DNA of 64,000 bases from an uncultured Gammaproteobacteria bacterium. Its GTDB lineage: Bacteria > Patescibacteriota > Patescibacteriia > S139-126. The position numbers and the translations under genes were made by a program. The notes under the pieces are model-generated. The model saw nothing but the letters and a program-made list of their open reading frames with translations. It searched no databases and had not been told where the DNA came from. This document shows, piece after piece, positions 7,631-46,758 of this stretch; the stretch's first letter is position 1; the number at the start of each line of letters is the position of its first letter. The stretch is taken from the NCBI GenBank assembly GCA_964493305.1, contig CAZBLW010000001.1, positions 384,037-448,036 on the forward strand, read 5' to 3'.

Positions 7631-8824
7631 ATGAAACTAAAAACTTTAAATAAGACGACAAAGTTATGCGGGAAAAAAGTTTTACTCAGGGTAGATTTGA
7701 ACGTCAAGTTAGGATCAGACAAAAAGGTTGATCAAAAGGAAGATTTTAAATTGCAAAGAATATTACCGACTATAAAATATTTACAAACCCAAGGGGCTAA
7801 AATAATTTTACTGTCCCATTTAGGTCGTCCCAATGGTCGGGTGGTGCCAACTTTGTCATTACAACCGGTAGTTGATAGGTTAATTACTTTATTGGCGCAA
7901 AATATCAAGTTAATAAAAAAACAGCCTTGGTTAGATATAAAAAAGCAAATCGACCAGTTAGTAAATGGTCAGATTGTTGTTTTAGAAAACTTACGCTTTT
8001 TTAAAGGAGAAGATACCAACGATAATATTTTGGCAAAACAGTTAGCGAGTTTGGGTGATATTTATGTCAATGATGCTTTTGCTGCTTGTCATCGTGAGGC
8101 AGCTTCAATGGTAGCAATTACCAAATTTTTACCGACCTATGCCGGTTGGTTAATGGCCAGCGAAGTTCAACAGTTGAGTAGCTTAATAAATAAGAAAACT
8201 AAACCCTATCTGACAATTTTGGGTGGAGCCAAAATTAGTACCAAAATTGATTTGGTGGCCAAATTTGTCAAAATATCTGACTATGTTTTAGTAGGTGGGG
8301 GATTGGCCAATAATTTTTTATTAGCTGATGGTAAATCAATAGGCAAATCAATTGTAGAAAAAAAATATTTAAGTAAACTAAAAAAAGTTTTACGGCAAAA
8401 TCGTAAAAAAATCTTATTACCAATTGACGTGACGGTTGATAAGACAACTACCAAGTTGGTGGAAGCAACACAAAAACTAGTTGGTGATATAAAAAAAGAC
8501 GAAAAAATCATTGATATTGGAACAAACACAGTTAGATCCTGGTCACAAATAATCAAGCGAGCAAAATTGATAGTTTGGAATGGTCCTTTAGGAATCGTCG
8601 AAGATAGGAAAGCTAGTCATGCTTCACGAGCCTTAGCTGAGTTGATTGCTGCTAGGTCAAAGCGAGCGTGTTTCAGTGTCGTTGGTGGGGGAGAAACTGT
8701 TTGGTTAATTCAGGACATGAATATTTTTGATAGTTTTGATTACGTATCAACTGGCGGGGGAGCAATGATAGAATTTTTAGAAGGCAAAACTTTGCCAGGG
8801 ATTAAACCTTTATTAAAAAAATGA
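7631..8824 (+). CDS. pgk: phosphoglycerate kinase
   Basis: KVLLRVDLNV and ILLSHLGRP signatures. Confidence 0.9.
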   Translation: MKLKTLNKTTKLCGKKVLLRVDLNVKLGSDKKVDQKEDFKLQRILPTIKYLQTQGAKIILLSHLGRPNGRVVPTLSLQPVVDRLITLLAQNIKLIKKQPWLDIKKQIDQLVNGQIVVLENLRFFKGEDTNDNILAKQLASLGDIYVNDAFAACHREAASMVAITKFLPTYAGWLMASEVQQLSSLINKKTKPYLTILGGAKISTKIDLVAKFVKISDYVLVGGGLANNFLLADGKSIGKSIVEKKYLSKLKKVLRQNRKKILLPIDVTVDKTTTKLVEATQKLVGDIKKDEKIIDIGTNTVRSWSQIIKRAKLIVWNGPLGIVEDRKASHASRALAELIAARSKRACFSVVGGGETVWLIQDMNIFDSFDYVSTGGGAMIEFLEGKTLPGIKPLLKK

Positions 8825-9323: not shown

Positions 9324-10556
9324 ATGGTTAAAATTAAAAAGATCAAAGCTTTGGAAATTCTTGACTCTAGAGGCAACCCGACGATTGCCACTTTTTTAGA
9401 ATTGAGTTCAGGGGTGAAAGCATCGGCTTTGGTGCCTTCTGGGGCATCAACCGGCCGCCACGAAGCTTATGAATTACGCGATGGTGGTAAGCGTTATCAC
9501 GGTTTAGGTGTAACTAAAGCCATAAAAAATATTACCAAGGAAATTGTTCCGGCTGTTGTTAATAAAAATATTACTGATCCCATTGATCTTGATTATACTT
9601 TATGCTCTTTGGATGGAACTATCAATAAACATCGTTTAGGTGCCAATGCTATTTTGGGAGTATCTTTGGCTTATGCTCGAGCCTGTGCTTACCATTATCG
9701 TTTACCGTTATTTGCCTATTTAAGAAAAATTTATGGTTATAAGTATCACTGGCAAATACCTTATCCGATGATGAATGTATTGAATGGCGGTCGACATGCT
9801 GATAATGGTCTATCAATTCAGGAATTTATGATTGTACCAAAACAGAAGAAATTTGCCGATCGGTTGAGAGCCGGTTCGGAAATTTATCACAGTTTGAAAA
9901 AAATTTTACAAACAAAAAAATTATCTACAGGACTTGGTGATGAAGGAGGATTTGCTCCCAGATTAGCGAGTAATGAACAAGCCTTACAGTTATTGATTCA
10001 AGCAATTAAAAAAGCCAACTATAAGCCTGGTCAGGATGTTTGGTTGGCATTGGATGTTGCCGCTTCTGAATTTTTTAACGGACAGACTTATCAATTTGAA
10101 GATAAATCAATCGTTGCGGATAAATTAATATCAATTTATAAAAAATGGATTGCCAAATATAATTTACTTGGTATTGAAGATGGCTTAGCAGAAGATGATT
10201 GGGGAGGTTGGCAAACACTCACCAAAGCTTTGGGACAAAAAACTTTGTTAGTCGGCGATGATTTATTTGTTACCAATCAATCCAGATTGAAACAAGGAAT
10301 TGAAAAATCAGTGGCCAATGCTATTTTGATTAAATTGAATCAAATTGGTACTTTGACTGAAACCATGCAAACGATTATAGCGGCCCAGAAAAACAATTAT
10401 AAAGTAATTATTTCTCACCGTAGTGGAGAAACACCTGATGACTTTATTGCTGATTTAGCCGTGGCGGTAAGCGCAGATTATATAAAAAGTGGTGCGCCAG
10501 CGAGATCAGAAAGACTGGCAAAATACAATCGTTTATTGAAGATAGAACAACACTAA
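9324..10556 (+). CDS. eno: enolase
   Basis: N-terminus IKALEILDSRGNPT. Signature SHRSGETPD. Confidence 0.95.
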   Translation: MVKIKKIKALEILDSRGNPTIATFLELSSGVKASALVPSGASTGRHEAYELRDGGKRYHGLGVTKAIKNITKEIVPAVVNKNITDPIDLDYTLCSLDGTINKHRLGANAILGVSLAYARACAYHYRLPLFAYLRKIYGYKYHWQIPYPMMNVLNGGRHADNGLSIQEFMIVPKQKKFADRLRAGSEIYHSLKKILQTKKLSTGLGDEGGFAPRLASNEQALQLLIQAIKKANYKPGQDVWLALDVAASEFFNGQTYQFEDKSIVADKLISIYKKWIAKYNLLGIEDGLAEDDWGGWQTLTKALGQKTLLVGDDLFVTNQSRLKQGIEKSVANAILIKLNQIGTLTETMQTIIAAQKNNYKVIISHRSGETPDDFIADLAVAVSADYIKSGAPARSERLAKYNRLLKIEQH

Positions 10557-10617: not shown

Positions 10618-12198
10618 ATGAACAACACTACTACCAACCGAAAACCTAATGTTTTAATTGTGATTGATGGTTTAGGTATAGCCAATGATCAACCTGACAA
10701 CCCTGTGGAAATGGCCAATACCCCCACCTTTAAATTGTTGTGGGAAAAATATTACCACACCTCATTAGCTGCTGCCGGTGAAGACGTTGGCCTAATGCCC
10801 AATCAAGATGGTAACAGCGAAGCTGGTCATATGAATATTGGTGCTGGTAGAGTTGTTGGTCAAGATGTTTCCCTTATTAATCACAGCATAGCTGACGGTA
10901 CTTTTTTTAAAAATTCTGCATTTATCGCAGCTATTTCTCATGTCCAAAAAAACAATAGTAATTTACATCTCATGGGTTTATTGTCAGATCGACACTCGGG
11001 CCATGTTAACCCCAAGCATTTAGAAGCATTACTAACTCTGATACGCCAGCACAATTTAAAAAACAATGTGTATTTACATTTATTTACCGACGGTAGAGAT
11101 ACGCCCAAACACGCCGGACTTGGTTTTTTACGAACTTTGGAAGAACAACTTCAGCCCCATGAACGGATCGCCACTATTATGGGTCGGGTTTTATTGGATC
11201 GCAAAAAAAACTGGCTCAAGACCAAGGTAGCCTATGAAGCTCTGACCATGGGAATCGGTAAAATTGTTTCTAAACCAGAAAAAGCCATTCGCGAAGCTTA
11301 TGCCTGCGGTGAAACTGATGAATTTATCAGTCCGACCATTATCAGTTTGGATAACGATCCCAGTTATGGTCGAATTAATGATAATGATGCGATAATTTTT
11401 TATAATTTACGTTCTGATCGTGCTAGACAATTGACTAAACCTTTTGTTCAAGTAGAATTTGAAACCAAAAATAAAGATTCTTTTACGCGAAAAAAACTCT
11501 TGAAAAATTTGGTTTTTGTGGCCATGACTGATTTTGGACCTGATCTTGATCATGTTTTAACTGCCTATCCGTCAGCTGATATTTCTGGTACCCTGCCTAA
11601 CGCTTTGCGCAATCTAAAACAACTTTATATTGCTGAGGGTGAAAAGTATGCTCATATTACTTATTTTTTCAATGGTGGACACGATCGACCGGTTGCAGGA
11701 GAAGACAGGATTTTTGTACCTTCTCCAAATGTAGATTCCTATGATCAAACCCCGGAAATGTCGGCCAATAAAATTACCGAAATTGTAATTGATAATATTA
11801 AACAAAATCAATATGACTTTTATGCCATCAATTTTGCCAATCCAGATATGATTGGTCATACCGGTAATTTAGGAGCAGCTATCAAAGCTATTGAGTGTGT
11901 TGATAAAAATATTGGTCTTATTTTACAAGAGGTAATAGCGCGTGATGGTCTTTTATTTATTACAGCTGATCACGGCAACGTTGAGGAGATAATAAATGTT
12001 CAAACTGGCGAAATTGATACCGAGCACTCTAGTAACCCCGTACCTTTTTTTATTGCCACCAATCATCAGATTTATCCGACACACAAGTTACCGAACGGGC
12101 GCTTGGCTGATGTAGCACCGACAATTTTGTCAGCTATGAATATACCTAAAACCAGAGAAATGACAGGTAAAAATTTATTAGCACCGTCGAGTATATGA
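10618..12198 (+). CDS. gpmI: 2,3-bisphosphoglycerate-independent phosphoglycerate mutase (iPGM), copy 1
   Basis: NSEAGHMNIGAGR catalytic Ser motif. DGRD and TADHGN metal-site motifs. Confidence 0.85.
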   Translation: MNNTTTNRKPNVLIVIDGLGIANDQPDNPVEMANTPTFKLLWEKYYHTSLAAAGEDVGLMPNQDGNSEAGHMNIGAGRVVGQDVSLINHSIADGTFFKNSAFIAAISHVQKNNSNLHLMGLLSDRHSGHVNPKHLEALLTLIRQHNLKNNVYLHLFTDGRDTPKHAGLGFLRTLEEQLQPHERIATIMGRVLLDRKKNWLKTKVAYEALTMGIGKIVSKPEKAIREAYACGETDEFISPTIISLDNDPSYGRINDNDAIIFYNLRSDRARQLTKPFVQVEFETKNKDSFTRKKLLKNLVFVAMTDFGPDLDHVLTAYPSADISGTLPNALRNLKQLYIAEGEKYAHITYFFNGGHDRPVAGEDRIFVPSPNVDSYDQTPEMSANKITEIVIDNIKQNQYDFYAINFANPDMIGHTGNLGAAIKAIECVDKNIGLILQEVIARDGLLFITADHGNVEEIINVQTGEIDTEHSSNPVPFFIATNHQIYPTHKLPNGRLADVAPTILSAMNIPKTREMTGKNLLAPSSI

Positions 12199-13766
12199 AA
12201 GCACACACCCCCGTAGTATTAGTAGTACTTGATGGTTGGGGAATAGCCCCACCTTCCATCGGTAATGCCATCACCTTAGCACAAACCCCGAACTACGACA
12301 GTTTTTTATTGAACTATCCTTCTTTTAATATTCAAGCCTCAGGCGAATCAGTAGGTCTACCTTGGGGAGAAATGGGTAATTCGGAAGTAGGTCATTTATC
12401 CTTAGGGTCAGGTAAAATTTTATATCAAAATTTACCTCGTATTACTAGAGCAATTTCCGATGGTAGTTTTGTAACCAATGCAGCTTTTGAGCAAGCCTTT
12501 GAACACGTTAAACAAAACAATTCCAAATTACACATTATCGGTTTGGTTTCTGATGGTGGTGTGCATAGTTATAATGAACATCTATATGCACTTATTGAAA
12601 CCGCCAAATTAAATAAAGTGAAACAACTTTATATTCATGCTTTTTTGGACGGCAGAGATACAGCTAAAAATAGCGGTTTAGGTTATATTGTTGCTTTACA
12701 AAAAGTTTTACATAATGTTGGTTTGGGTAGAATCGCCACAATTTCTGGTAGGTTTTATGCCATGGATCGAGATAATCGTTGGGATAGAATTGCCGCTACT
12801 TATAATGCCATGGTATTGGGTCAAGCCGCGGCAAGTTATCAAGATCCAATAGAAGCAGTTAATCAATCTTATCAGCAAGGTGTATTTGATGAAGAGTTTG
12901 TGCCCACGATAATTTTAGATACACAGAACCAACCAACAGTAGTTGGTGACAATGATGCCATTATTTACTTTAATTTCCGTAGCGACCGAGCTAGGGAACT
13001 AACTAAAGCGTTGGTATTAAGTGATTTTAATGGATTTGCCAGGGAGAAAGTGTGTCAAAATGTATTTTTTGTAACTATGACCGAATATGAAAAAGATTTG
13101 CCAGTAACCATAGCTTTTCCTCCTGAGGTTGTTTCTATGCCCTTGGCTAAGGTGATAGCTGAAAATGGTGGCAAACAGGTTCATATAGCCGAAACTGAAA
13201 AATATGCTCACGTTACTTTTTTCTTCAACGGAGGTATTGAGAAACCATTTACTGGTGAGGAACATATCATGGTGCCGTCTCCTAAAATTTCTAGTTATGA
13301 TAAAAAACCGGAAATGTCTGCTTATGATGCCACCAAAAAATTATTAGCAGCCATCAATCAAGGTGATTATATGTTTTTATTGATCAATTATGCCGCGCCG
13401 GATATGGTGGCTCATACCGGAAATTTAGCAGCCACAATTAAAGGCATTGAAGCGGTTGATGATTGTTTAGGAAAAATCGCTGAAGCCGTATTGGGGCGAG
13501 ATGGAGTTTTGTTAATTACCGCTGATCACGGCAATGCTGAAGAATTAATCAAACTTCGTAGCGGCGAAATCGACAAAGAGCACTCGTCATCACCCGTACC
13601 ATTTTTGATCATTGGTAATCAATGGTTAGGGCAAGGAAGGTTAGCCAATAAGAACGAACTTTATGCTAGCACTCCGGTGGGAGTTTTAGCTGATGTAGCT
13701 CCCACAATTTTAACACTGTTGAATTTACCCATCCCTCCAGAAATGACTGGTAAATCATTATTATAA
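12195..13766 (+). CDS. gpmI: 2,3-bisphosphoglycerate-independent phosphoglycerate mutase (iPGM), divergent tandem paralog
   Basis: MGNSEVGHLSLGSG, DGRD and TADHGN motifs. ATGA overlap with copy 1. Confidence 0.85.
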   Translation: MKAHTPVVLVVLDGWGIAPPSIGNAITLAQTPNYDSFLLNYPSFNIQASGESVGLPWGEMGNSEVGHLSLGSGKILYQNLPRITRAISDGSFVTNAAFEQAFEHVKQNNSKLHIIGLVSDGGVHSYNEHLYALIETAKLNKVKQLYIHAFLDGRDTAKNSGLGYIVALQKVLHNVGLGRIATISGRFYAMDRDNRWDRIAATYNAMVLGQAAASYQDPIEAVNQSYQQGVFDEEFVPTIILDTQNQPTVVGDNDAIIYFNFRSDRARELTKALVLSDFNGFAREKVCQNVFFVTMTEYEKDLPVTIAFPPEVVSMPLAKVIAENGGKQVHIAETEKYAHVTFFFNGGIEKPFTGEEHIMVPSPKISSYDKKPEMSAYDATKKLLAAINQGDYMFLLINYAAPDMVAHTGNLAATIKGIEAVDDCLGKIAEAVLGRDGVLLITADHGNAEELIKLRSGEIDKEHSSSPVPFLIIGNQWLGQGRLANKNELYASTPVGVLADVAPTILTLLNLPIPPEMTGKSLL

Positions 13767-20801: not shown

Positions 20802-20829
20802 TTGACATCGTATTTTAATGTGTTACAAT
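20802..20829 (+). promoter_or_regulatory. sigma70-type promoter TTGACA-N16-TGtTACAAT (extended -10) for rplJ-rplL
   Basis: Near-consensus -35 and extended -10, about 140 nt upstream of rplJ. Confidence 0.6.
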
Positions 20830-20835
20830 ATTTTT

Positions 20836-20967
20836 ACACCGCAGACAATAGGTTCTATATTGATTAATGCAAGTTTTTGCGCCTATCGAGGTCACAATCC
20901 TTTTTTTGGATCTAGGTCGAGTACCAAGTAAAAGTCTGCGTTTTAACGCAGTTTTTTGTTTATATTT
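20836..20967 (+). promoter_or_regulatory. rplJ (L10) leader with terminator-like attenuator hairpin at 20936-20957
   Basis: About 130-nt 5-prime UTR. CTGCGTT-TTAA-AACGCAG plus TTTTTTG sits just upstream of the rplJ start. This is consistent with L10(L12)4 autoregulatory leaders. Confidence 0.4.
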
Positions 20968-32323: not shown

Positions 32324-32398
32324 TGGTACCGGTACGGGGAATCGAACCCCGATTACCAGGATGAGAACCTGGCGTCCTAACCGTTAGACGATACCGGC
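32324..32398 (-). tRNA. tRNA-Glu (anticodon CTC) with encoded CCA
   Basis: Minus-strand cloverleaf: GCCGGTA acceptor, D-loop AACGGTTA, anticodon stem CCAGG/CCTGG with loop TTCTCAT, T-arm CGGGG-TTCGATT-CCCCG, then ACCA. Confidence 0.8.
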
Positions 32399-37371: not shown

Positions 37372-37839
37372 ATGAATTTAACAATCGGAAAATTAGCACC
37401 AAATTTTACTTTAACTGACTATCAAGGCAGAAAATATTTACTAAGTGACTACCATGGTCAGTGGGTGGTATTGTATTTTTATCCCAAAGACAATACACCT
37501 GGCTGTACTATTGAAGCTTGTGCATTTCGAGACAACTTTTCTTTATATAAAAAAAATAAAATAAATTTATTTGGAATTAGCGCTGATAATAGTAATTCCC
37601 ATGAAAAGTTTATCAATAAATTTTCCTTACCTTTTATTTTATTGTCAGATGTCAGTAGGGAAGTAATAAAAAAATATCAGGTTCATAAAGTTAAAAATTT
37701 ATTTGGTAAAAAAGTACCATCTATTGTTAGGCGAACCTACGTGATTGACCCCCAAGGTAAAATTTTTAAAATTTATGAAAATTTTGATTTAACTAAACAC
37801 CCCTTAGCTATTATTTCGGATATTAAGTCTAATCAGTAA
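37372..37839 (+). CDS. bcp: thiol peroxidase Bcp (peroxiredoxin)
   Basis: YPKDNTPGCTIEACAFRD peroxidatic Cys motif. Confidence 0.8.
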   Translation: MNLTIGKLAPNFTLTDYQGRKYLLSDYHGQWVVLYFYPKDNTPGCTIEACAFRDNFSLYKKNKINLFGISADNSNSHEKFINKFSLPFILLSDVSREVIKKYQVHKVKNLFGKKVPSIVRRTYVIDPQGKIFKIYENFDLTKHPLAIISDIKSNQ

Positions 37840-37906: not shown

Positions 37907-37935
37907 TTGACAGAATAGCAAAAATTTGGTATACT
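37907..37935 (+). promoter_or_regulatory. consensus sigma70 promoter TTGACA-N17-TGgTATACT (extended -10)
   Basis: Perfect -35, 17-nt spacer and TGn extended -10, about 25 nt upstream of the 37963 start. Confidence 0.6.
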
Positions 37936-37962: not shown

Positions 37963-39084
37963 ATGCCAGATAATGAATCAATTTTAGAAAAAGTCATTGC
38001 CACTCAAATTAAGGAGGAAAAAGAGGTGTTTAACCCCAAGTTAATTGTGGAAAAATTAGCTGCTGGTTTACCTGATCGAGAAAAAAATGTTATTTATTTA
38101 CGTCATGGTCTCCAGGAGAATTCTGATAAATATACCTTGGAAGACATAGGTAAAATTTATAATATCACCAGAGAAAGGGTCAGACAGATTGAAGTTTCTA
38201 CAATTAAACTGATGAAAAAAAATTTAAAGGCTAACAATGACCTAAATCAATCTTTGTCAGTAGTAGAACAAATTATTAAAGATAGTGGCGGAGTTATTGA
38301 AAATAGTGAGTTAATTGACTTAGTTAAAGGTTCAATTTTAGAAAAAATCGAAACTAATTTTGTAGTTTTTTTCCTGGAGTTAATAAAAGACCAGTTTTTA
38401 CAAGTTAAAGATACTAAAAATATTAAAGCTGGCTGGCAGTTGCCTGGTTTTAATTTAGAAATATTGGAAAATATAATCAGTCAAACCGAAGAAATTGTCA
38501 AAAAAGCTGATAAATTATTTTCTGCTCACGAACTTTGGTTGGCTTTTAAAAATGGTGTTGATATTAAACAGTGGCCTCTAGATTTAAGTGAAGAAATATT
38601 TTTATCTTTTATCAGATTGTCTAAAAAGTTAAAAGTGAATCCTTTCAATGATTGGGGACTTAAACATTGGAATTTGATCACCCCCCGGAGAATGAATGAT
38701 AAAATATATTTAGTTTTGAAACACAATGAGCATCCTTTACACTTTAGAGAGATTGCCAAAAAAATAAATGAAGCCAACTTTGATGGTAAAAAAGCTCACG
38801 CAGCAACAATTCACAATGAACTAATTTTAGACCATAACCGTTACGTACTAATCGGCAGGGGAATTTATGCTCTTAAGGAATGGGGTTATAAACCTGGTGT
38901 AGTAGCAGATGTGATCGAAGATATAATTAAACAATCTGACCAACCCCTTAATAAAAATGAAATAATTGCAGAAGTTTTAAAGAAAAGATTGGTCAAAGAT
39001 AGTACTATTGTTTTGGCTTTAATGAATAAAAAAAGATTTACCAAAAATCATGATGGCACTTATAAATTAGCACAGGATCAATAA
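37963..39084 (+). CDS. protein with N-terminal sigma-70 region 4 (4.1+4.2) HTH fused to about 280-aa uncharacterised domain
   Basis: REKNVIYLRHGL is region 4.1. TLEDIGKIYNITRERVRQIEVSTIKLMKK is region 4.2. No region 2 is present. Confidence 0.5.
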   Translation: MPDNESILEKVIATQIKEEKEVFNPKLIVEKLAAGLPDREKNVIYLRHGLQENSDKYTLEDIGKIYNITRERVRQIEVSTIKLMKKNLKANNDLNQSLSVVEQIIKDSGGVIENSELIDLVKGSILEKIETNFVVFFLELIKDQFLQVKDTKNIKAGWQLPGFNLEILENIISQTEEIVKKADKLFSAHELWLAFKNGVDIKQWPLDLSEEIFLSFIRLSKKLKVNPFNDWGLKHWNLITPRRMNDKIYLVLKHNEHPLHFREIAKKINEANFDGKKAHAATIHNELILDHNRYVLIGRGIYALKEWGYKPGVVADVIEDIIKQSDQPLNKNEIIAEVLKKRLVKDSTIVLALMNKKRFTKNHDGTYKLAQDQ

Positions 39085-39086
39085 CT

Positions 39087-40607
39087 ATGGTGATTGACCT
39101 ATCATTTTTAAATTTAAATCCCAAAATGATTTACTGGATGGTATTAGTGGTGCTGAGTATCTTGGCTCTATTTTTTTTGTATTTTATTTTTAAATTCTTT
39201 ATTCAATTTTTTTGGTTACCAGCCAGAAAAGCCAAATATTTACAAGCAACTAAGTTTATCTTGTTGGCAATTGACATTCCCAAAAACAACGAACAGTCAC
39301 CCAAGGCGGTTGAGCAAGTTTTTGCCACTCTAGCTGGTACATTAAGCGGACCAAATTTATACGAAAGGTATTGGTTAGGCAATCACCAGTTATCATTTAG
39401 TTTGGAATTGGTCAGTCTGGAAGGCTATATCCAGTATATAATTCATTCTCCGGAAAAATATCGTGATGTAGTGGAAGCAGCTTTTTTTGCACAATATCCT
39501 GATGCAGAGATTATGGAAATTCCTGATTATGTGAAAAATTTTCCAGATGATTTTCCCAACGATACTTATGATTTATGGGGGACAGATCTAAAATTGGGCA
39601 ATAAAAATCCTTATCCGATTAGAACCTATCCCAGATTTGAACATACATTATCACAAGAAATAAAAGATCCTTTAGCTTCGTTGTTGGAAGTAATGTCACA
39701 CTTGAGACGGGGTGAATACGCCTGTTTACAATGGGTTATTACCCCCACTGGAGATAGTTGGAAATTACAATGTGAAAAAGAGGTAAAAAAAATAATCGGC
39801 GAAAAAGCCCCAGAAAAAAAAGATATTGGCTATTATATGACTTATCCGTTTTTATCTTTTATGAAATTTTTAGGTGATACCTTGGTTGTAAATGCTGAAG
39901 GTACCGCTGATAATCAGGCAAAGCGTGAGGATGCACCCAATAAAATGTTGTATTTAACCAGTGGACAAAGAGATGTTCTGCAAGGCATTGAAGAAAAGAT
40001 GTCAAAAATAGGTTTTTTAGCCAAGGGACGGTTTGTTTATTTGTCACGACGTGAATTATTTGATAAAAACCGAGGCGTAGCACCAATTATGGGTGGTTTA
40101 AATCAGTTCAATACTCTAAATATGAATTATTTTACCAAAGTGAAAACTACCACTACTACCGCAGATTATTGGCGTGTTGAAAAAAGAATCGCCAAAAAAC
40201 AAACTAAGATAATCAAAGCTTATAAACAGAGAATTGGTGATAGTAAATTTGGCAACAATCCTTTTGTATTGAATATTGAGGAATTAGCTACGGTTTATCA
40301 TTTTCCCGCTATGACCGTAAAAGCACCCTTAGTGAAAAAGGTAGAAAGTAAACGTTCCGAGCCCCCCGCTGCTTTGCCAGTTGATTTTTCTGCAGTAGAA
40401 GCAGATGAAGTCACAGTAGTTTTACCAGCTGAGAAGACTGAGAAAAAAAATGCAGAACCGATTAAAAATGATTCTGCTATGAATGATATTGTAGAAGTAC
40501 AAGTCGTAACTGGAGCTGATCATAAAATTTCTTCTCAGGAAGAAGTTTCTTTGCCCGTTGATGAGCAAGTCAGCAAAGGTCAACCACCAACTAACTTGCC
40601 ATTTTAA
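39087..40607 (+). CDS. hypothetical single-pass membrane protein with large soluble domain, 506 aa
   Basis: N-terminal TM MIYWMVLVVLSILALFFLYFIFKFF. The C-terminal third is low-complexity and acidic/Lys-rich. Confidence 0.5.
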   Translation: MVIDLSFLNLNPKMIYWMVLVVLSILALFFLYFIFKFFIQFFWLPARKAKYLQATKFILLAIDIPKNNEQSPKAVEQVFATLAGTLSGPNLYERYWLGNHQLSFSLELVSLEGYIQYIIHSPEKYRDVVEAAFFAQYPDAEIMEIPDYVKNFPDDFPNDTYDLWGTDLKLGNKNPYPIRTYPRFEHTLSQEIKDPLASLLEVMSHLRRGEYACLQWVITPTGDSWKLQCEKEVKKIIGEKAPEKKDIGYYMTYPFLSFMKFLGDTLVVNAEGTADNQAKREDAPNKMLYLTSGQRDVLQGIEEKMSKIGFLAKGRFVYLSRRELFDKNRGVAPIMGGLNQFNTLNMNYFTKVKTTTTTADYWRVEKRIAKKQTKIIKAYKQRIGDSKFGNNPFVLNIEELATVYHFPAMTVKAPLVKKVESKRSEPPAALPVDFSAVEADEVTVVLPAEKTEKKNAEPIKNDSAMNDIVEVQVVTGADHKISSQEEVSLPVDEQVSKGQPPTNLPF

Positions 40608-40610
40608 TTT

Positions 40611-42419
40611 ATGAAATTTAATCCCGAAGTAACCTATTTTGGAAAAACAAATTTTCGTAACCAAACACGAGAGTTTGGTATTAAGCGTGACGATCGCAGG
40701 CGTCATATGTATGTGATTGGGAAAACTGGTATGGGCAAATCAGAGATGTTAAAAAACATGGCCATTCAAGACATTAACAACGGTAACGGTCTGGCAGTAG
40801 TTGATCCACATGGAGAATTGGTTGAAGATTTATTAAACGCTATACCAGCCCAGCGGATAAATGATGTAGTTTATTTTAATCCAGCTGATGTTGATTATCC
40901 CTTGGCTTTCAATATTTTAGAATCAATTGATGAGCCACATCAGAAAAATTTAGTGGCCTCAGGTTTGATTGGTATTTTCAAAAAATTATGGGCTGATTCT
41001 TGGGGGCCACGTTTGGAATACCTATTACGCAATGCCATTTTGGCATTACTTGATTATCCGGGAGCTACTTTGTTGGGAGTGACAAGAATTTTGGTAGATA
41101 AAGATTATCGTAAAAAAGTTGTAATGAAAATTAAAGATCCGGTGGTGAAAAGTTTTTGGACTCAAGAGTATCCCAAATACAACCAACAGTTCCAGGTTGA
41201 GGCTATTTCGCCAATCCAAAATAAAGTTGGACAATTTTTATCTCTATCTTTAATAAGAAATATTGTTGGACAAGTAAAATCAACTATTGATTTACGTGAA
41301 ATTATGGATAATAAAAAGATTTTATTGTTAAATTTATCTAAAGGTAGAATTGGTGAAGATGCCTCGGCATTATTGGGCGCGATGATGATAACAAAAATTC
41401 AAATGGCAGCCATGGCCAGAGTTGATATTCCTGAGAATCAACGTAAAGATTTTTATCTTTATGTAGATGAATTTCAAAATTTTGTTACTAATTCATTTGC
41501 TGATATTTTATCAGAAGCGAGAAAATATAGATTAAATTTAATAATCGCCCACCAATATATTGCTCAGCTGGTGACCAGTGATTCAACTCGAGTAAGGGAT
41601 GCTGTATTTGGTAATGTCGGTACTTTAGTGACTTTTCGCGTCGGCGCAGATGATGCTGAATTTTTGGCCAAAGAATTTACTCCTACTTTTGATGAAACTG
41701 ATTTAGTAAATTTAGCTAAATACGATGTTTATTTGAAACTGATGATTGATGGTATTGCTTCCACTCCATTTTCGGCAACTACTTTACCCCCGTTGCCTAA
41801 AGACCAAATGAATGAAGATAAAATTATTAAAGTTACCAGAGAAAGATACGCCACCAAACGAGAAATTATTGAAGATAAAATTGCTCGTTGGGCAGGATTT
41901 GGTGATGAAGAAGAACCTGTTGAAAAAAAAGTACCTATAGAGAAAGAACGTGAACCTAAAAAGAAATTAGTTAAAACTGTGGACACTACATCTATTCAAA
42001 CTTATCCGGCCATTTGTAGTAATTGTCAAAAACCAATTAATCTAAAATTCAAACCAGATGGTATTAGACCGGTTTTTTGTCCTGACTGTTTAAAGTTGTA
42101 TAAACAACAAAAAATTTCCTTACCGAAAAACAATCAACCTTATAAAGAAGGTGATATAAAAAACTCTCAGTTAGTTAAAGCTGCTTTTACGCCAGTAAAA
42201 AATAAACCCAACAAAGAAATAATCATTGAGGAAGTTATTAAAGACACTCCAGCAGAAATTTCCTTGGCTGAAGCATTGGGTAAACTACAAATAAGTGAAA
42301 AAGTAGTAAATCCAAAAAAAACAAAAGATAACTCTACTGATTTTAAAGTAGCAGCTGATAAGATTAAACCCCAAACTAATAAACAGACTTTACAACCAGG
42401 TCAAAAAATAAAATTTTAA
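40611..42419 (+). CDS. soluble VirD4/TraD/TraG-like (HerA-FtsK superfamily) P-loop ATPase with C-terminal C4 zinc ribbon and Lys-rich tail
   Basis: Walker A VIGKTGMGKSE. Walker B LYVDEFQNF. ARKYRLNLIIAHQ and GTLVTFRVGADD resemble the TraG-D_C/DUF87 core. CSNCQ...CPDC ribbon. Confidence 0.65.
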   Translation: MKFNPEVTYFGKTNFRNQTREFGIKRDDRRRHMYVIGKTGMGKSEMLKNMAIQDINNGNGLAVVDPHGELVEDLLNAIPAQRINDVVYFNPADVDYPLAFNILESIDEPHQKNLVASGLIGIFKKLWADSWGPRLEYLLRNAILALLDYPGATLLGVTRILVDKDYRKKVVMKIKDPVVKSFWTQEYPKYNQQFQVEAISPIQNKVGQFLSLSLIRNIVGQVKSTIDLREIMDNKKILLLNLSKGRIGEDASALLGAMMITKIQMAAMARVDIPENQRKDFYLYVDEFQNFVTNSFADILSEARKYRLNLIIAHQYIAQLVTSDSTRVRDAVFGNVGTLVTFRVGADDAEFLAKEFTPTFDETDLVNLAKYDVYLKLMIDGIASTPFSATTLPPLPKDQMNEDKIIKVTRERYATKREIIEDKIARWAGFGDEEEPVEKKVPIEKEREPKKKLVKTVDTTSIQTYPAICSNCQKPINLKFKPDGIRPVFCPDCLKLYKQQKISLPKNNQPYKEGDIKNSQLVKAAFTPVKNKPNKEIIIEEVIKDTPAEISLAEALGKLQISEKVVNPKKTKDNSTDFKVAADKIKPQTNKQTLQPGQKIKF

Positions 42420-42422
42420 ATT

Positions 42423-43352
42423 ATGCACCAACTTACTAAACAGACCATAGCCGATATAAAAAATTTAAAAATCCAAGGAGCTACCAATGTAGTCTTAGCT
42501 ATAATCACCACTTTGGATAAATTGATAAAAGAAGTATCTTTTGAAAATTTTTTAGTACTAAAAAAATTTATTTTAGCTGAAACTTGGTTATTGGTTACTG
42601 CTCGACCAACCGAACCGTATGCTCAGAATTTGTACTATTTTTTGAATAAGAATATAAAAAATTTTAATCAACCAAAGGATAATAAAAAATTTAAAAGTAG
42701 TTTAAAAAAGTGGTTACAAGATTACCAAAATTATATTTTAAAAAACGATCTTAAAATTATAAGGTATGGCGTAAAAACATTGCGTCCCTATAAAAATATA
42801 TTAACTCATTGCCATTCTTCTACAGTGGTAAAAATAATCAAGTCGCTCCACCACACCAACAAAAAAATCCATGTGTTTGCAGATGAGACCAGGCCACTTT
42901 TTCAAGGTAGAGTGACTGCGAAAGAGTTACATCAGGCCGGTATCAAGGTAACTCAAATAGCTGATAGTGCAAGTGGTTTTTTGATTTCATCATTCTCAGG
43001 TCGGGATTTAATGATGGAGGCAATAGTGGTCGGAGCTGATGCAATCAAAACTAATGGCAGTATTATCAATAAAATTGGTACTTATGATATTGCTGCCAGT
43101 GCTTTTTTGAATAAAATACCTTTTTACGTAGCGACTAGTCTCTTGAAATTTGATTTTAAAAATCAAGTAAAAATCGAACAAAGATCTGATCGTGAACTAT
43201 GGCCAAATAAACCTGCCAATTTAAATATTCTTAATTTTGCTTTTGATTATGTACCGGCCCAGTTTATTACTGGTTTAATTACTGAGGTAGGTACTGTCAA
43301 ACCTAAGCAAGTCAAATCTTTGGTAAACAAACATTACCCATGGCTAAAATAA
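42423..43352 (+). CDS. ribose-1,5-bisphosphate isomerase (eIF-2B alpha/beta/delta-like family)
   Basis: GADAIKTNGSIINKIGTYDIA family motif. The assignment over MtnA rests on operon context with RuBisCO and AMP phosphorylase. Confidence 0.7.
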   Translation: MHQLTKQTIADIKNLKIQGATNVVLAIITTLDKLIKEVSFENFLVLKKFILAETWLLVTARPTEPYAQNLYYFLNKNIKNFNQPKDNKKFKSSLKKWLQDYQNYILKNDLKIIRYGVKTLRPYKNILTHCHSSTVVKIIKSLHHTNKKIHVFADETRPLFQGRVTAKELHQAGIKVTQIADSASGFLISSFSGRDLMMEAIVVGADAIKTNGSIINKIGTYDIAASAFLNKIPFYVATSLLKFDFKNQVKIEQRSDRELWPNKPANLNILNFAFDYVPAQFITGLITEVGTVKPKQVKSLVNKHYPWLK

Positions 43353-43957
43353 AAGATGATATCCAGTATGTAGTCTTTGATATTTATGGGGTAATCATAA
43401 CTGCTGGCCACAATATTAGGGATATATTATTTCCGATATTTCCTAAACACAAAAGTCATCGTTTTAGTCGTCGTATCTATCACTATTATGCAGAAAATAA
43501 ACTAAAACGAGCCAACTTTTGGTCACTACTGGGAAATTTTGATAGTTCTTTGGAAAATAAATTTTATGAACGACATCGTTTGGATAAAGATTTTTATCAA
43601 GTTATTGAGCAGTTAAAAAAGCAAAGTAAAAAATTGTATATTTTATCCAATATTCCTCAGGAATGGTCAGAATATTTAAATAAAAAGTTTAAGTTTGATA
43701 AGTATTTTTCTGGTACTGTTTTTTCTTGGCAAGTTGGTAAACGTAAGCCCGATCCAAAAATTTTTAACTATTTAGTTAAAAAATATACTTTACCAGTAGG
43801 TAAAACTTTGTTTATTGATGATAATATTGATAATATTAGAATGGCTAAACGTTTGGGTTTTAGGACTTGTTGGTTCAATCGAGATAAGATCGACCTTAAA
43901 CCCACTAGTGCCGATTTTATAATCAATGAATTAAAAAAATTAATAGAAATTATATGA
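43340..43957 (+). CDS. HAD-IA family hydrolase with variant motif I (DIYG)
   Basis: Motif I VVFDIYGVI, motif II YILSN, motif III KRKPDP, motif IV FIDDNIDN. Confidence 0.6.
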   Translation: MAKIKDDIQYVVFDIYGVIITAGHNIRDILFPIFPKHKSHRFSRRIYHYYAENKLKRANFWSLLGNFDSSLENKFYERHRLDKDFYQVIEQLKKQSKKLYILSNIPQEWSEYLNKKFKFDKYFSGTVFSWQVGKRKPDPKIFNYLVKKYTLPVGKTLFIDDNIDNIRMAKRLGFRTCWFNRDKIDLKPTSADFIINELKKLIEII

Positions 43958-45246
43958 AAAAATTTACCACTTCATATCAGGGTTTTATAGATCAAAAATA
44001 CAAACCCAATTTAGACAAAGAATTTTTAGTTACTTATCATGTTAAACCTACTCCGGGGCAAACATTTGAAACGGTTGCCGAGGCCATAGCTGGTGAATCA
44101 TCAATAGGTACTTGGACTCATTTGGAAACTCTCTCGGTTGCTACTAAAACAAAATTAACACCTCATGTCTATGTAGTTGATAAAAATCGTGGTTTTATAA
44201 AAATTGCTTATCCTTTAGCATTGTCTGAAATTGGTAATCTACCCCAGTTATTGTCCTTTTTAGGTGGTAATATATTTAGCATGAAAATAGTCGACCGTTT
44301 ACGTTTGGAAGATATTGAGTTTCCCAAAAAATATATTAATGCTTGCTTAGGTCCTTATCATGGCATAGCCGGTATCAGAAAAATAATGAATGTTAAACAA
44401 AGAGCCTTAGTTGGCAGTATAATCAAGCCCAAAGTTGGTTTGGATGTAACTGAAACCGCTGCGGTTGCTTATGAAACCTGGCGGGGTGGGGTAGATGTAA
44501 TTAAAGATGATGAAAATTTAACTTCACTGGTTTTCAATAATTTTAATGATCGCGTTGATCAATTAATAGCTACTAGAAAAAAGGTTGAAAAAGAAACTGG
44601 CGAAAAAAAAGTTTTTGTTTTCAATATAACCGCTCCTTATGATGTTGCGCTACAAAGAGCTCGTTATGTAAAAAAAAGAGGAGGACGAGTGGTTATGGTT
44701 GATATTGTCGCTATGGGTTGGTCAGCTATTCAAACCATCAGAAAACAAAATTTAGGCCTAATCTTACATGGTCACCGGGCGGGACATAGTATGTTTACCA
44801 AAGATCCTAGTCACGGGATGAGTATGTTGGTGCTGGCAAAGTTATCCAGACTTGCCGGTATTGATCAATTACATACCGGTACAGTGGTTGGTAAAATGGA
44901 AGGCACGGCTCATGAGGTTGATTCTTTGAATGATTTTTTGCGAGAGGATGGCGGAGAAATTGATTATTTAAGAGAGAATTGGTCAAAATTAAAACCAGTA
45001 ATGCCAATTGCCTCAGGCGGGCTACATCCCGGCTTGGCCGCGGAACTGATAAAAATTTTGGGTCGTAATTTAATTATTAATTTCGGTGGTGGTATTCATG
45101 GTCATCCCAACGGTTCTTTTGCTGGTGCTGTTGCTGCTCGTGACGCGGTTGAAGCAGCTTCTCTGGGAGCAAATTTACATACCTATGCCAAAAATAGACC
45201 AGAGTTAAAAACAGCTCTTGAGTATTGGTCTAATGTAAAAAATTAA
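43954..45246 (+). CDS. rbcL: ribulose-1,5-bisphosphate carboxylase large subunit, form II/III type
   Basis: GGVDVIKDDE, IKPKVGLD, ILHGHRAGH and the GG loop. Confidence 0.85.
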   Translation: MKKFTTSYQGFIDQKYKPNLDKEFLVTYHVKPTPGQTFETVAEAIAGESSIGTWTHLETLSVATKTKLTPHVYVVDKNRGFIKIAYPLALSEIGNLPQLLSFLGGNIFSMKIVDRLRLEDIEFPKKYINACLGPYHGIAGIRKIMNVKQRALVGSIIKPKVGLDVTETAAVAYETWRGGVDVIKDDENLTSLVFNNFNDRVDQLIATRKKVEKETGEKKVFVFNITAPYDVALQRARYVKKRGGRVVMVDIVAMGWSAIQTIRKQNLGLILHGHRAGHSMFTKDPSHGMSMLVLAKLSRLAGIDQLHTGTVVGKMEGTAHEVDSLNDFLREDGGEIDYLRENWSKLKPVMPIASGGLHPGLAAELIKILGRNLIINFGGGIHGHPNGSFAGAVAARDAVEAASLGANLHTYAKNRPELKTALEYWSNVKN

Positions 45247-45258
45247 TAATTAATAAAA

Positions 45259-46758
45259 ATGTCCTTTTTCTTAAAATCAAAAAAATTGGATTTTTCCACG
45301 GGAAATGAACCGGTGGTAGTCATAAACGATCAAGAAGCCGAATTTTATGGGGTAATAGCCGGTGATAGAATTCAGTTGACTTGGGATAAGCGTACCAAAA
45401 GAATTGCTGAAGTCAGAACAACTACCAGTAAAGTTAAACCAGGGGAGTTGGGTTTGTTTAAAGAGTTATGGAATAAAAAAGATGTACCAGCCAATGGTGA
45501 TATAGTTGAGGTGGAAATTGTTTCCCGACCACCGTCAATTCAAGCCATTAGAAAAAAGTTATTTGGCAAAAAATTGAACTATGAAGAAATTTACTCAATT
45601 ATCAAGGACATAGTTGATGATCGTTTATCTGAAATCGAGACGACTTACTATGTAGCTTCTAGCTATTTGCGTGATTATACTTTAAACGAACTTTATTACA
45701 CTTCCAAAGCAGTAGCTGAGACTGGCGAAATGCTCAATTTAAATGTACCGGCAGTTGATAAACACTCAGTTGGAGGGTTACCGGGAAATCGAACTACTAT
45801 GGTAGTTGTGCCAATAGTTTCTTCATTGGGATTATATATACCCAAAACATCTAGTCGGGCAATTACTTCACCTTCTGGTACAGCGGATACCATGGAAGTT
45901 TTAGCACCAGTAACCTTTACCATGTCGGAGATTAAGAAAATTGTAAAAAAAGTTAATGCTTGTATGGTATGGGGTGGAGGGGTCAATTTAGCGCCTGCTG
46001 ATGATAAAATTGTCCGTCTTACCAGGCCATTAGGAATCGAACCATATGATAAAATGATTGTTTCTATTATGGCTAAAAAGGTAGCCATGGGTGTTGATTA
46101 TTTGGTACTTGATTTACCGATTGGTCCCACTACAAAAATTCCGCAAAAAAAATTTGCAGATGAGATTGAAAAAAAATTTATGTTTTTAGGAAAAAAATTT
46201 GGTATGAAGGTTAAGGTTATTAGGACGCCATCTTTTGAACCAGTGGGTAGAGGTATAGGTCCAGCTCTTGAGGCTAGGGATGTATTGCGAGTTTTGCAAC
46301 AAAAAGAATTGCGACCGATTGATTTGGAAAAAAAGGCTATTAGATTGTCAGGTTATTTATTGGAATTAGCTGGTTACTGTAAGGTTGGTCAAGGTGCTGC
46401 CATAGCTCAACGTCAATTAATTAGTGGCGAGGCAGATAAACAGATGAAAAAGATAATATCGGCTCAAGGAGGTAAGGCAGATATTGATTCCGATGAGGTA
46501 GCTTTGGGCGCTTTAAATTATGAAATTCATGCTAAGAAGAGCGGTCAGATTAATTTTATAAACAACCGTGCCATCAATGAAATTTGTGTAAATCTAGGAG
46601 CACCAGGTGATAAGATTGCCGGTATTCATATGCATGTTCATTATCTTGACAAAGTAAGAGTGAAAGATAAACTTTTTACTCTTTATGCTCAGAGTCAAGA
46701 TCGTATCAAGCTAGCGCTCAAAGCTTTAGAAAAAAACGTAATTGTTGAAATTAAATAA
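45259..46758 (+). CDS. AMP phosphorylase (thymidine phosphorylase family, DeoA homolog with N-terminal extension)
   Basis: TP-family core DKHSVGGLPGNRTT. At 499 aa it matches the archaeal AMPpase size. Confidence 0.75.
   Translation: MSFFLKSKKLDFSTGNEPVVVINDQEAEFYGVIAGDRIQLTWDKRTKRIAEVRTTTSKVKPGELGLFKELWNKKDVPANGDIVEVEIVSRPPSIQAIRKKLFGKKLNYEEIYSIIKDIVDDRLSEIETTYYVASSYLRDYTLNELYYTSKAVAETGEMLNLNVPAVDKHSVGGLPGNRTTMVVVPIVSSLGLYIPKTSSRAITSPSGTADTMEVLAPVTFTMSEIKKIVKKVNACMVWGGGVNLAPADDKIVRLTRPLGIEPYDKMIVSIMAKKVAMGVDYLVLDLPIGPTTKIPQKKFADEIEKKFMFLGKKFGMKVKVIRTPSFEPVGRGIGPALEARDVLRVLQQKELRPIDLEKKAIRLSGYLLELAGYCKVGQGAAIAQRQLISGEADKQMKKIISAQGGKADIDSDEVALGALNYEIHAKKSGQINFINNRAINEICVNLGAPGDKIAGIHMHVHYLDKVRVKDKLFTLYAQSQDRIKLALKALEKNVIVEIK

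Follow-up and report, generated by a model that had tools for sequence, protein, structure and literature searches.

Why does an operon for a three-enzyme pathway carry a fourth gene, and what might its product do? The route from AMP phosphorylase via ribose-1,5-bisphosphate (R15P) isomerase to form III RuBisCO is seen as a self-contained three-enzyme pathway and is one of the few predicted energy-yielding routes in many organisms belonging to the candidate phyla radiation (CPR) and to the DPANN archaea. The question is raised by a stretch of 64,000 nucleotides (positions 384,037 to 448,036 of contig CAZBLW010000001.1, assembly GCA_964493305.1; the whole stretch is called the window below), which is listed under an uncultured Gammaproteobacteria bacterium and placed in the Patescibacteriota by GTDB. 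There, a gene for a hydrolase of the haloacid dehalogenase (HAD) superfamily is located between the genes for a presumed R15P isomerase and for form III RuBisCO and overlaps both. In the two main papers on CPR and DPANN RuBisCO, the genes for isomerase, RuBisCO and phosphorylase follow one another or are fused, and no hydrolase of the operon is mentioned in either paper.

The protein has the fold of C1-capped HAD-IA hydrolases and an intact catalytic core, its position in the operon is conserved, and its unusual motif I is found throughout its family. We infer an activity, a dependence on Mg2+ and a role in the pathway, and consider it probable that the protein is an active enzyme tied to this pathway; our proposals on the actual substrate and on the phosphate group that leaves are speculative.

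A HAD-IA protein without the textbook acid/base

The protein, which begins with MAKIKDDIQYVVFDIYGVII, matches PF00702 (E 2.9e-18) and PF13419 (E 1.7e-14) and passes the model of HAD-IA variant 3, TIGR01509 (61.3 bits; cut-off 29.4), in agreement with the HAD-IA assignment made in the first-pass annotation of the window. The open reading frame is a genuine gene rather than a chance frame: nine protein clusters keep its length and have D14, Y16, G17 and V18 invariant. Its GC content (29-30%) is unremarkable against that of the neighbouring genes (28-40%), and a recent foreign origin was rejected for this reason.

Every equivalog model of NCBIfam was failed, among them those for the nucleotidase YjjG (60.9 bits; cut-off 159.9), haloacid dehalogenase II (TIGR01428, 57; cut-off 125.4), phosphoglycolate phosphatase (NF009695, 47.9; cut-off 225; and TIGR01449, 25.3; cut-off 180), YihX-type glucose-1-phosphatase (NF006991, 43.8; cut-off 295) and beta-phosphoglucomutase (beta-PGM; TIGR01990, 22.5; cut-off 189.4); the further nucleotidase matches PRK09449 (40.6 bits) and TIGR01993 (35.7 bits) are far below their cut-offs as well. 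The 25 best NCBIfam matches do not include NF053830, the model for ribulose-1,5-bisphosphate (RuBP) 5-phosphatase, and no CbbY chain occurs among the 48 PDB sequence matches with E <= 0.01 or the top 50 Foldseek matches. Comparison with the haloarchaeal RuBP phosphatase Halxa_2271 by BLAST/tblastn gave non-significant E values of 3.6-6.6, the Halxa_2271 sequence having been taken from the supplement of PMC9700705 as read by optical character recognition, with the reading frames joined by eye. Membership in the CbbY, CbbZ/Gph or haloarchaeal RuBP phosphatase families was therefore rejected, since every sequence-based test of it failed.

The AlphaFold2 model of the protein (predicted local distance difference test 91.3; predicted TM-score 0.90) has a Rossmannoid core and a four-helix C1 cap, the cap helices being formed by residues 26-94 between strand 1 and strand 2. 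Foldseek aligned it to C1-capped HAD-IA structures in the PDB with a probability of 1.00. The top matches are L-2-haloacid dehalogenases (1zrm, 2no4, 1jud; E ~1e-11), followed by the HAD domain of a drimenol synthase (E ~5e-11) and then by BT2542 and YihX (E ~1e-9). All these matches have E values of 1e-11 to 1e-9 and TM-scores of 0.63-0.76; as dehalogenases and phosphatases score nearly alike, the fold does not discriminate between them.

The catalytic motifs were located by alignment with YihX and with the catalytic residues mapped in the drimenol synthase of Aquimarina spongiae (AsDMS). The presumed nucleophile D14 follows the hydrophobic strand VVF and is invariant in both operon clades described below (A, to which the window protein belongs, and B). 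Tyr16 occupies the position of the acid/base Asp two residues further on (Asp+2, at position D+2), so that the window protein lacks DxD. The first-pass annotation had noticed this replacement and had regarded motifs II-IV as intact; both observations hold (S103-N104, K136 and D160-D161; Table 1).

It had also presented motif I as non-canonical. The Tyr is real, but it is not a peculiarity of this gene, as became evident from searches of different depth. A word-indexed search of 5.8 billion proteins returned only nine close clusters (47-100% identity), whereas an exhaustive search of 1.84 billion representatives with a hidden Markov model (HMM) gave 37 full-length matches at E <= 1e-30; most of the subfamily was missed by the former and exposed by the latter alone. 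Column counts cover these 37 representatives and weaker relatives, with ~150-200 sequences aligned per column. The nucleophile is Asp in 154 of 154 relatives. Position D+2 is taken by Met in 79 of these relatives, by Tyr in 15, by Phe in 14, by Gly in 13, by Ile in 12 and by Trp in 6, and by Asp in a single one of the 154; a bulky hydrophobic residue is present there in ~80% of the subfamily. Conservation of the other motifs is high: Ser or Thr is found at position 103 in 196 and the following Asn in 170 of ~200 sequences, Lys136 in 197 of 200, and Asp at positions 160 and 161 in 187 and 184 of ~200, respectively. Motif I is non-canonical only in comparison with the textbook DxD and is the rule within its own subfamily. 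Asp+2 was therefore lost early in this lineage, whereas the residues required for Mg2+-phosphoryl chemistry were all kept under selection.

We defined this D-x-hydrophobic-G subfamily in the present analysis. Its signature consists of motif I D-x-(M/Y/F/I)-G-(V/T), (K/R)xxYxxY...FW in the cap, a Trp after motif II and a DD pair in motif IV, all of which the window protein has; a scan of NCBIfam revealed no curated model and no characterised member. The distant matches of the first search, as well as 79 unrelated metagenome loci, nearly all read FD(L/I/F)G(G/N)V...W(D/N)P with Gly at D+2, and Gly at this position is widespread among generic HAD genes. Outside clade A, the first search returned just one more relative with Tyr, P0010 (153 aa, on a 520-kb NCBI contig), a HAD protein almost without a cap whose motif I reads FDIYDV, with Tyr at D+2 and Asp at D+3.

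For the missing acid/base, His24 (D+10, at the core/cap hinge) was considered as an invariant replacement. Its column contains His in 63 and Asp in 40 of ~156 relatives. All clade A members have His here with the exception of the HAD protein of L017 (5393-6004), which reads SEGQNIRN instead of SEGHNIRN; this Gln, together with Ser or Asn elsewhere, weakened the candidate.

Two characterised enzymes without Asp+2 are instructive. The best solved sequence relative is the HAD domain of AsDMS (PDB 9m7d/9mhs; E 5e-17, residues 86-186), the alignment being restricted to the C-terminal half. Like the window protein, it belongs to HAD-IA variant 3 and has a four-helix C1 cap (Foldseek TM 0.7). Its DXD motif has diverged to D-L-G, and Mg2+ is held by the Asp, the backbone carbonyl of the Gly and an Asp of motif IV. 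It is active and Mg2+-dependent on drimenyl phosphate (Km 5.8 uM, kcat 0.56 s-1), and mutagenesis demonstrated that the Asp, the Asn, the Lys and both Asp residues of motif IV are essential, while the general acid was left open. The essential residues (Asp nucleophile, Ser-Asn, Lys, Asp-Asp) are all present in the window protein. In contrast to the latter, AsDMS has Gly instead of Tyr at D+2, is fused to a terpene cyclase, and possesses a hydrophobic pocket for an isoprenoid, whereas the window protein has a basic cap loop. The second enzyme, YihX of E. coli MG1655 (HAD4; sequence MLYIFDLGNVIVDIDF), has the motif I FDLGNV and is a specific alpha-D-glucose-1-phosphate phosphatase, acting on the anomeric C1 phosphate. 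It is likewise a HAD-IA variant 3 protein, with RKPE against RKPD of the window protein in motif III and FFDDNADNI against FIDDNIDNI in motif IV, but it is only 18% identical, differs in the D+2 residue and the cap motifs, and has no RuBisCO context.

Tyr at D+2 is shared with the L-2-haloacid dehalogenases (L-DEX YL, DhlB, DehIVa), which have DxYG and align with TM ~0.7. These enzymes possess Thr after the Gly of motif I and a metal-free motif IV of the Ser/Asn type without a DD pair; P0032 (FDCYGTL ... AQSLFHD) exemplifies this type. The window protein has Val18 instead of the Thr and has D160-D161, and Met rather than Tyr dominates its wider family. Because of Val18, the DD pair and the TIGR01428 score below cut-off, an identity as L-2-haloacid dehalogenase was rejected.

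Occurrence of the gene in RuBisCO operons

A survey of RuBisCO operons for a HAD insert, as proposed in the first-pass annotation, was carried out by scanning 185,579 species genomes with the RuBisCO protein. The gene order isomerase-HAD-RuBisCO-phosphorylase is present in every readable context of clade A (P0002, P0006, P0007, P0009, the GTDB genomes L009, L015 and L017, and the metagenome contig L031). Overlaps of 10-16 nt between the isomerase and HAD genes and of 4 nt between the HAD and RuBisCO genes recur in L001, L004, L006, L008, L009, L015, L017 and L031. One of the clade A genomes is named Candidatus Paceibacter, which places the clade A lineage in the Patescibacteria. In clade B, represented by L012 (RuBisCO 68% identical), the same slot is taken by the gene for a 208-aa HAD protein that is 30% identical to the window protein, has the motif I FDLMGV, and overlaps the isomerase gene by 19 nt; a second member, P0037, has the same motif in the same operon context, again with a 19-nt overlap. 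No homologue in the operon context carries DxDG, and with two diverged operon lineages the gene is no one-off insertion.

The gene is not universal, however. Two related patescibacterial operons, L010 (RuBisCO 77% identical) and L011 (70% identical), lack it, and in the archaeal/DPANN loci that have both flanking genes (L021, L023-L026) isomerase and RuBisCO genes are adjacent with no HAD gene between them. The isomerase-RuBisCO spacers of L010 (175 nt, 5816-5992) and L011 (88 nt, 5909-5998) are AT-rich, and no recognisable remnant of a HAD gene was found in either. In a neighbour-joining tree of RuBisCO, the clade A loci form one group to which L010 is sister, and L011 is nested among the clade B loci. 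This nesting implies at least one loss of the HAD gene and hence its dispensability. The L011 RuBisCO is 84% identical to that of a clade B locus, which suggests for L011 a fairly recent, clean deletion. The tree is also consistent with vertical inheritance of the HAD slot across clades A and B. The HAD gene is a conserved but dispensable, accessory part of the operon.

The slot between isomerase and RuBisCO genes seems to collect accessory genes. In L013, a patescibacterial metagenome-assembled genome, it is occupied by a gene for a 157-aa cytidylyltransferase-like protein (2242-2715; PF01467, HxGH), which overlaps the isomerase stop codon. A metagenome scan with the family alignment yielded one true member (L031); the other 79 metagenome loci encode generic HAD proteins (mostly DxGG...W[DN]P), none of them beside RuBisCO, e2b2 or AMP phosphorylase genes. 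The genes of two other DxMG proteins, P0040 and P0041, have unrelated neighbourhoods. A plasmid collection searched with the isomerase protein for the haloarchaeal isomerase-HAD-FucA operon yielded MtnA genes only.

Candidate substrates and activities

We propose that the protein is a C1-capped, aspartyl-phosphate-forming and Mg2+-dependent HAD-IA phosphohydrolase, from a subfamily that is present mainly in CPR bacteria and DPANN archaea. In this mechanism, D14 would attack the phosphoryl group, the Mg2+ ligands would be D14, D160/D161 and the Y16 backbone carbonyl, and S103 and K136 would stabilise the transition state. Candidates for proton transfer without Asp+2 are His24 at the cap hinge and a metal-bound water. 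The protein would be made along with the isomerase, RuBisCO and AMP phosphorylase, at a constant ratio to the first two, and would act as a dispensable helper of the pentose-bisphosphate pathway (nucleoside monophosphate, NMP, shunt). A link to this pathway is suggested by the overlapping gene order that recurs in clade A and by the 30%-identical clade B protein in the same slot. As to the substrate, a pentose bisphosphate is the most likely, though tentative, choice, which we would rate somewhat below even chances. The enzyme could strip one phosphate from xylulose-1,5-bisphosphate (XuBP), a RuBisCO inhibitor, in a CbbY-like proofreading reaction; alternatively, it could take one from surplus RuBP or R15P and thus serve as an overflow valve into the pentose-phosphate pool. 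By analogy, it would work like a phosphatase of the YihX/AsDMS type, with a role comparable to that of CbbY, CbbZ or the haloarchaeal RuBP phosphatase.

A pentose bisphosphate is hinted at, indirectly, by the slot shared between two diverged clades, by a fusion partner in Micrarchaeia, by a basic cap loop and by the precedents of CbbY and the haloarchaeal enzyme. Among proteins outside clade A, the clade A profile is matched best by the C-terminal domains, reading FDLMG...EGHI, of ~435-aa fusion proteins of Micrarchaeia (P0063, P0190-P0197; loci L116-L120). Their N-terminal domains are canonical DxD HADs that are 30-33% identical to Halxa_2271, and their best NCBIfam matches are NF053830 (139-180 bits) and TIGR02253 (P0063, 185.7 bits; cut-off 169.75). 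The cap loop of clade A contains four invariant basic residues, H37, K38, H40 and R44, which would fit a polyanionic substrate, and the cap also has the conserved aromatic residues Y47, Y50, F60, W61 and W109. In P0083 (920 aa), a further composite protein of the family, GTPase (P-loop) motifs are located close to the N-terminus and HAD-like motifs I and IV occur as two sets, as read from its sequence.

With regard to the precedents, CbbY is a HAD-IA phosphatase of cbb operons and chloroplasts that removes the C1 phosphate of the RuBisCO inhibitor XuBP. It offers the best functional analogy, being co-encoded with RuBisCO and clearing a misfire product, by which renewed binding of the inhibitor is prevented. 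Unlike the window protein, CbbY belongs to the beta-PGM-like branch of HAD-IA and has a DxD motif, and it serves form I/II RuBisCO in the Calvin cycle, whereas the partner of the window protein is a form III enzyme of nucleotide salvage. The haloarchaeal RuBP 5-phosphatase (Halxa_2271/VNG_1202C; NF053830) shares an operon with R15P isomerase and acts on the product of that enzyme, RuBP, alone. Here, too, a HAD protein is encoded beside R15P isomerase, and the family of Halxa_2271 is the one fused to the family of the window protein in Micrarchaeia. In contrast to the window protein, however, it has the canonical motif FDLDNTL, and it stands in for RuBisCO in a non-carboxylating pathway, whereas RuBisCO is present in the window operon.

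Several points weigh against our proposal. Gene association is the only basis of the substrate assignment, and no subfamily-level homology to CbbY, CbbZ/Gph or the haloarchaeal RuBP phosphatase was found. Unless it had some selectivity or regulation, a phosphatase for RuBP or R15P that is expressed with RuBisCO would be wasteful of substrate. The N-terminal domains of the Micrarchaeia fusions are below the NF053830 cut-off of 330 bits, with the YjjG-type nucleotidase model scoring nearly as high; in the contexts examined, no RuBisCO or e2b2 gene is close to the fusion genes, and one of the latter has a (d)CMP-kinase-like gene as a neighbour, which speaks for nucleotides instead. In the Dojkabacteria member P0136, the family HAD is fused to a P-loop domain resembling 2-phosphoglycerate kinase. 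When scored with the clade A profile, clade B reaches no better than ranks 111 and 129, and each clade may have entered the operon through a recruitment of its own. Finally, His24 is replaced by Gln in L017, and roughly a third of the subfamily has Ser, Asn or some other residue in this column.

The first-pass annotation had left a nucleotidase and a sugar-phosphate phosphatase side by side, and both options are retained here, the former with the lower probability. A phosphatase directed at nucleotides, that is, a nucleotidase or a feeder trimming NDP, NTP or 3',5'-bisphosphonucleotides to 5'-NMPs for AMP phosphorylase, seems rather unlikely. The best full-length equivalog-type matches are indeed nucleotidases (YjjG, PRK09449, TIGR01993), but all of their scores are far below the cut-offs. 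The substrate entering the operon's pathway is a nucleotide, and a nucleoside deoxyribosyltransferase-like gene near a Micrarchaeia fusion gene adds to the kinase-like neighbour mentioned above; a 5'-nucleotidase, however, would destroy the substrate of AMP phosphorylase. The aromatic residues of the cap could stack on a base, although they occur family-wide and may simply pack the cap. An analogue of CbbZ/Gph, clearing the toxic RuBisCO oxygenase product 2-phosphoglycolate when microaerotolerant cells meet O2, is improbable in our view. HAD-IA phosphoglycolate phosphatases are classic genes of RuBisCO operons (cbbZ), NF009695 is among the weak matches, and the conserved basic cap residues could bind a carboxylate; still, the score is far below every cut-off for such phosphatases (47.9 against 225 bits), those known to us use DxD, and no link to glycolate was found in the family fusions or contexts examined. 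The peroxiredoxin gene upstream of the operon here and in L001 and L004 suggests exposure to oxygen, yet such a neighbour is weak evidence.

The remaining possibilities are less likely still. Hydrolysis of the terminal phosphate of phosphoribosyl pyrophosphate (PRPP) would give R15P, which the co-translated isomerase would convert to RuBP. AsDMS catalyzes diphosphate-to-monophosphate hydrolysis without Asp+2, a phosphate leaving group should need little acid catalysis on chemical grounds, the strongly basic cap loop suits a polyanion, and the HAD gene directly follows that of the isomerase. No direct evidence speaks for this feeder, though; AsDMS goes on to the alcohol, and an equivalent reaction would consume the R15P, sister lineages retain the remainder of the pathway but can dispense with the gene, and the route would be costly in ATP, all of which make us doubt it strongly. 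A mutase or phosphotransferase, in which the bulky D+2 residue shields a long-lived aspartyl phosphate that moves phosphate between C1 and C5 of ribose phosphates, would have R15P as a natural bisphosphate intermediate. Replacement of Asp+2 slows hydrolysis of the phospho-enzyme in other HADs, e.g. P-type ATPases, and the D+2 residue is bulky and hydrophobic in most of the family. Nevertheless, the HAD mutases known to us need Asp+2 to activate the sugar hydroxyl, and YihX and AsDMS, the two characterised relatives without it, are hydrolases. The beta-PGM-type mutase of the first-pass annotation found no support (TIGR01990, 22.5 against 189.4 bits), and we give this chemistry very little probability. 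Slighter even is the chance of a non-catalytic, regulatory pseudo-enzyme, also suggested by that annotation, or of a dehalogenase-like hydrolase with a substrate other than phosphate compounds. Asp+2 is missing, DxYG resembles motif I of the L-2-haloacid dehalogenases, and these enzymes head the Foldseek matches. On the other hand, the phosphatases AsDMS, YihX and BT2542 are nearly as good there, the dehalogenases lack the DD pair and have Thr where the window protein has Val, and TIGR01428 remains below its cut-off. A pseudo-enzyme is unlikely because the nucleophile, Ser/Thr, Lys and DD pair are kept almost invariantly over deep divergence and because YihX and AsDMS are active without Asp+2.

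Returning to the pentose-bisphosphate phosphatase and related branch reactions, a more far-reaching interpretation, which we consider doubtful at present, would make the window protein the founding context-anchored member of an unrecognised HAD subfamily of CPR bacteria and DPANN archaea, with phosphoryl transfer free of Asp+2, and the first known auxiliary enzyme of nucleotide salvage through form III RuBisCO. It would be either a non-orthologous proofreader of the CbbY type, protecting a form III RuBisCO that has no activase from XuBP, or a branch enzyme leading from PRPP to R15P or from R15P/RuBP to a pentose 5-phosphate and so connecting the pathway with the pentose-phosphate pool.

The gene block and its meaning for the pathway

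The four genes of the block are co-directional (Table 1). The insertion of the HAD gene between an e2b2-type isomerase gene and that of form III RuBisCO, with coupling on both sides, was confirmed as first annotated (13-nt and ATGA overlaps).

Table 1. Features of the four-gene block and catalytic motifs of the HAD protein (positions in the window)
Feature	Position	Strand	Basis or remark
IF-2B/e2b2-family isomerase gene, presumed R15P isomerase	42423..43352	+	PF01008, E 1.6e-61; opens the four-gene pathway block
HAD-IA (variant 3) hydrolase gene, 205 aa	43340..43957	+	Pfam, NCBIfam, 9 protein clusters
Isomerase/HAD overlap, 13 nt, translational coupling	43340..43352	+	HAD ATG 13 nt inside the isomerase reading frame
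Motif I, V-V-F-D14-I-Y16-G-V18	43379..43393 (D14-V18)	+	D14 presumed nucleophile and Mg2+ ligand
His24 (D+10), core/cap hinge, tentative relocated acid/base	43409..43411	+	Column counts
Motif II, S103-N104, phosphate binding	43646..43651	+	Equivalent S138, N139 functionally important in AsDMS
Motif III, Lys136	43745..43747	+	Equivalent K171 essential in AsDMS
Motif IV, D160-D161, Mg2+ ligands	43817..43822	+	Equivalent D195, D196 essential in AsDMS
HAD stop/RuBisCO start overlap, ATGA	43954..43957	+	Sequence
Form III RuBisCO large-subunit gene	43954..45246	+	TIGR03326, 512.5 bits; PF00016, PF02788
AMP (NMP) phosphorylase-like gene, DeoA family	45259..46758	+	NF003338, 536.7 bits

With 512.5 bits, RuBisCO exceeds the cut-off of the type III equivalog TIGR03326 (497.45). 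The isomerase passes the subfamily model TIGR00524 (196.8; cut-off 185.85) and is below the R15P isomerase equivalog TIGR00511 (169.6; cut-off 314.1), and the phosphorylase passes the subfamily model NF003338 (536.7; cut-off 434) and is slightly below the AMP phosphorylase equivalog TIGR03327 (517.9; cut-off 535). As these two proteins pass the subfamily models only, their exact activities are assigned from family and operon, and it is in this way that the isomerase is taken as a putative R15P isomerase.

Three co-directional, tightly spaced genes are located right before the isomerase gene (37963-42419). They encode a sigma-70 region 4/HARE-HTH protein, an unknown 506-aa protein and a TrwB-like ATPase (type IV coupling protein) that ends in a treble-clef zinc finger at its C-terminus; L001, L004 and L006 have these genes in the same order. 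The best promoter-like site (37907-37935) precedes the first gene of this string. It is conceivable that the string links DNA uptake or handling to nucleotide catabolism. Just upstream, as in L001 and L004, there is a peroxiredoxin (AhpC/TSA) gene (37372-37839), which hints at an exposure to oxygen that would be relevant to the oxygenase side reaction of RuBisCO. Elsewhere in the window, genes for phosphoglycerate kinase (7631-8824) and enolase (9324-10556) are next to two tandem overlapping paralogues of 2,3-bisphosphoglycerate-independent phosphoglycerate mutase (10618-12198 and 12195-13766), a set that fits onward use of 3-phosphoglycerate. An Rfam scan of the window detected a ribosomal protein L10 leader (20821-20967, +) and one tRNA (32327-32398, -), and no rRNA.

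New in this analysis are a conserved but dispensable fourth gene of the operon and a so far uncharacterised subfamily of HAD proteins in which D+2 is hydrophobic; a HAD enzyme without Asp+2 as such is not new. If the protein is a generic phosphatase, the finding is an annotation refinement only. The subfamily nevertheless provides a natural series, with Met, Tyr, Phe or Gly at D+2, for studying how HAD enzymes transfer protons without the textbook Asp, a question that was explicitly left open by the structural work on AsDMS.

For the pathway itself, a conserved and coupled fourth gene suggests overlooked maintenance or branch chemistry. To our knowledge, proofreading of RuBisCO inhibitors is known only for the RuBisCOs of the Calvin cycle; an analogue serving form III RuBisCO, if true, would show that the need for it arose independently.

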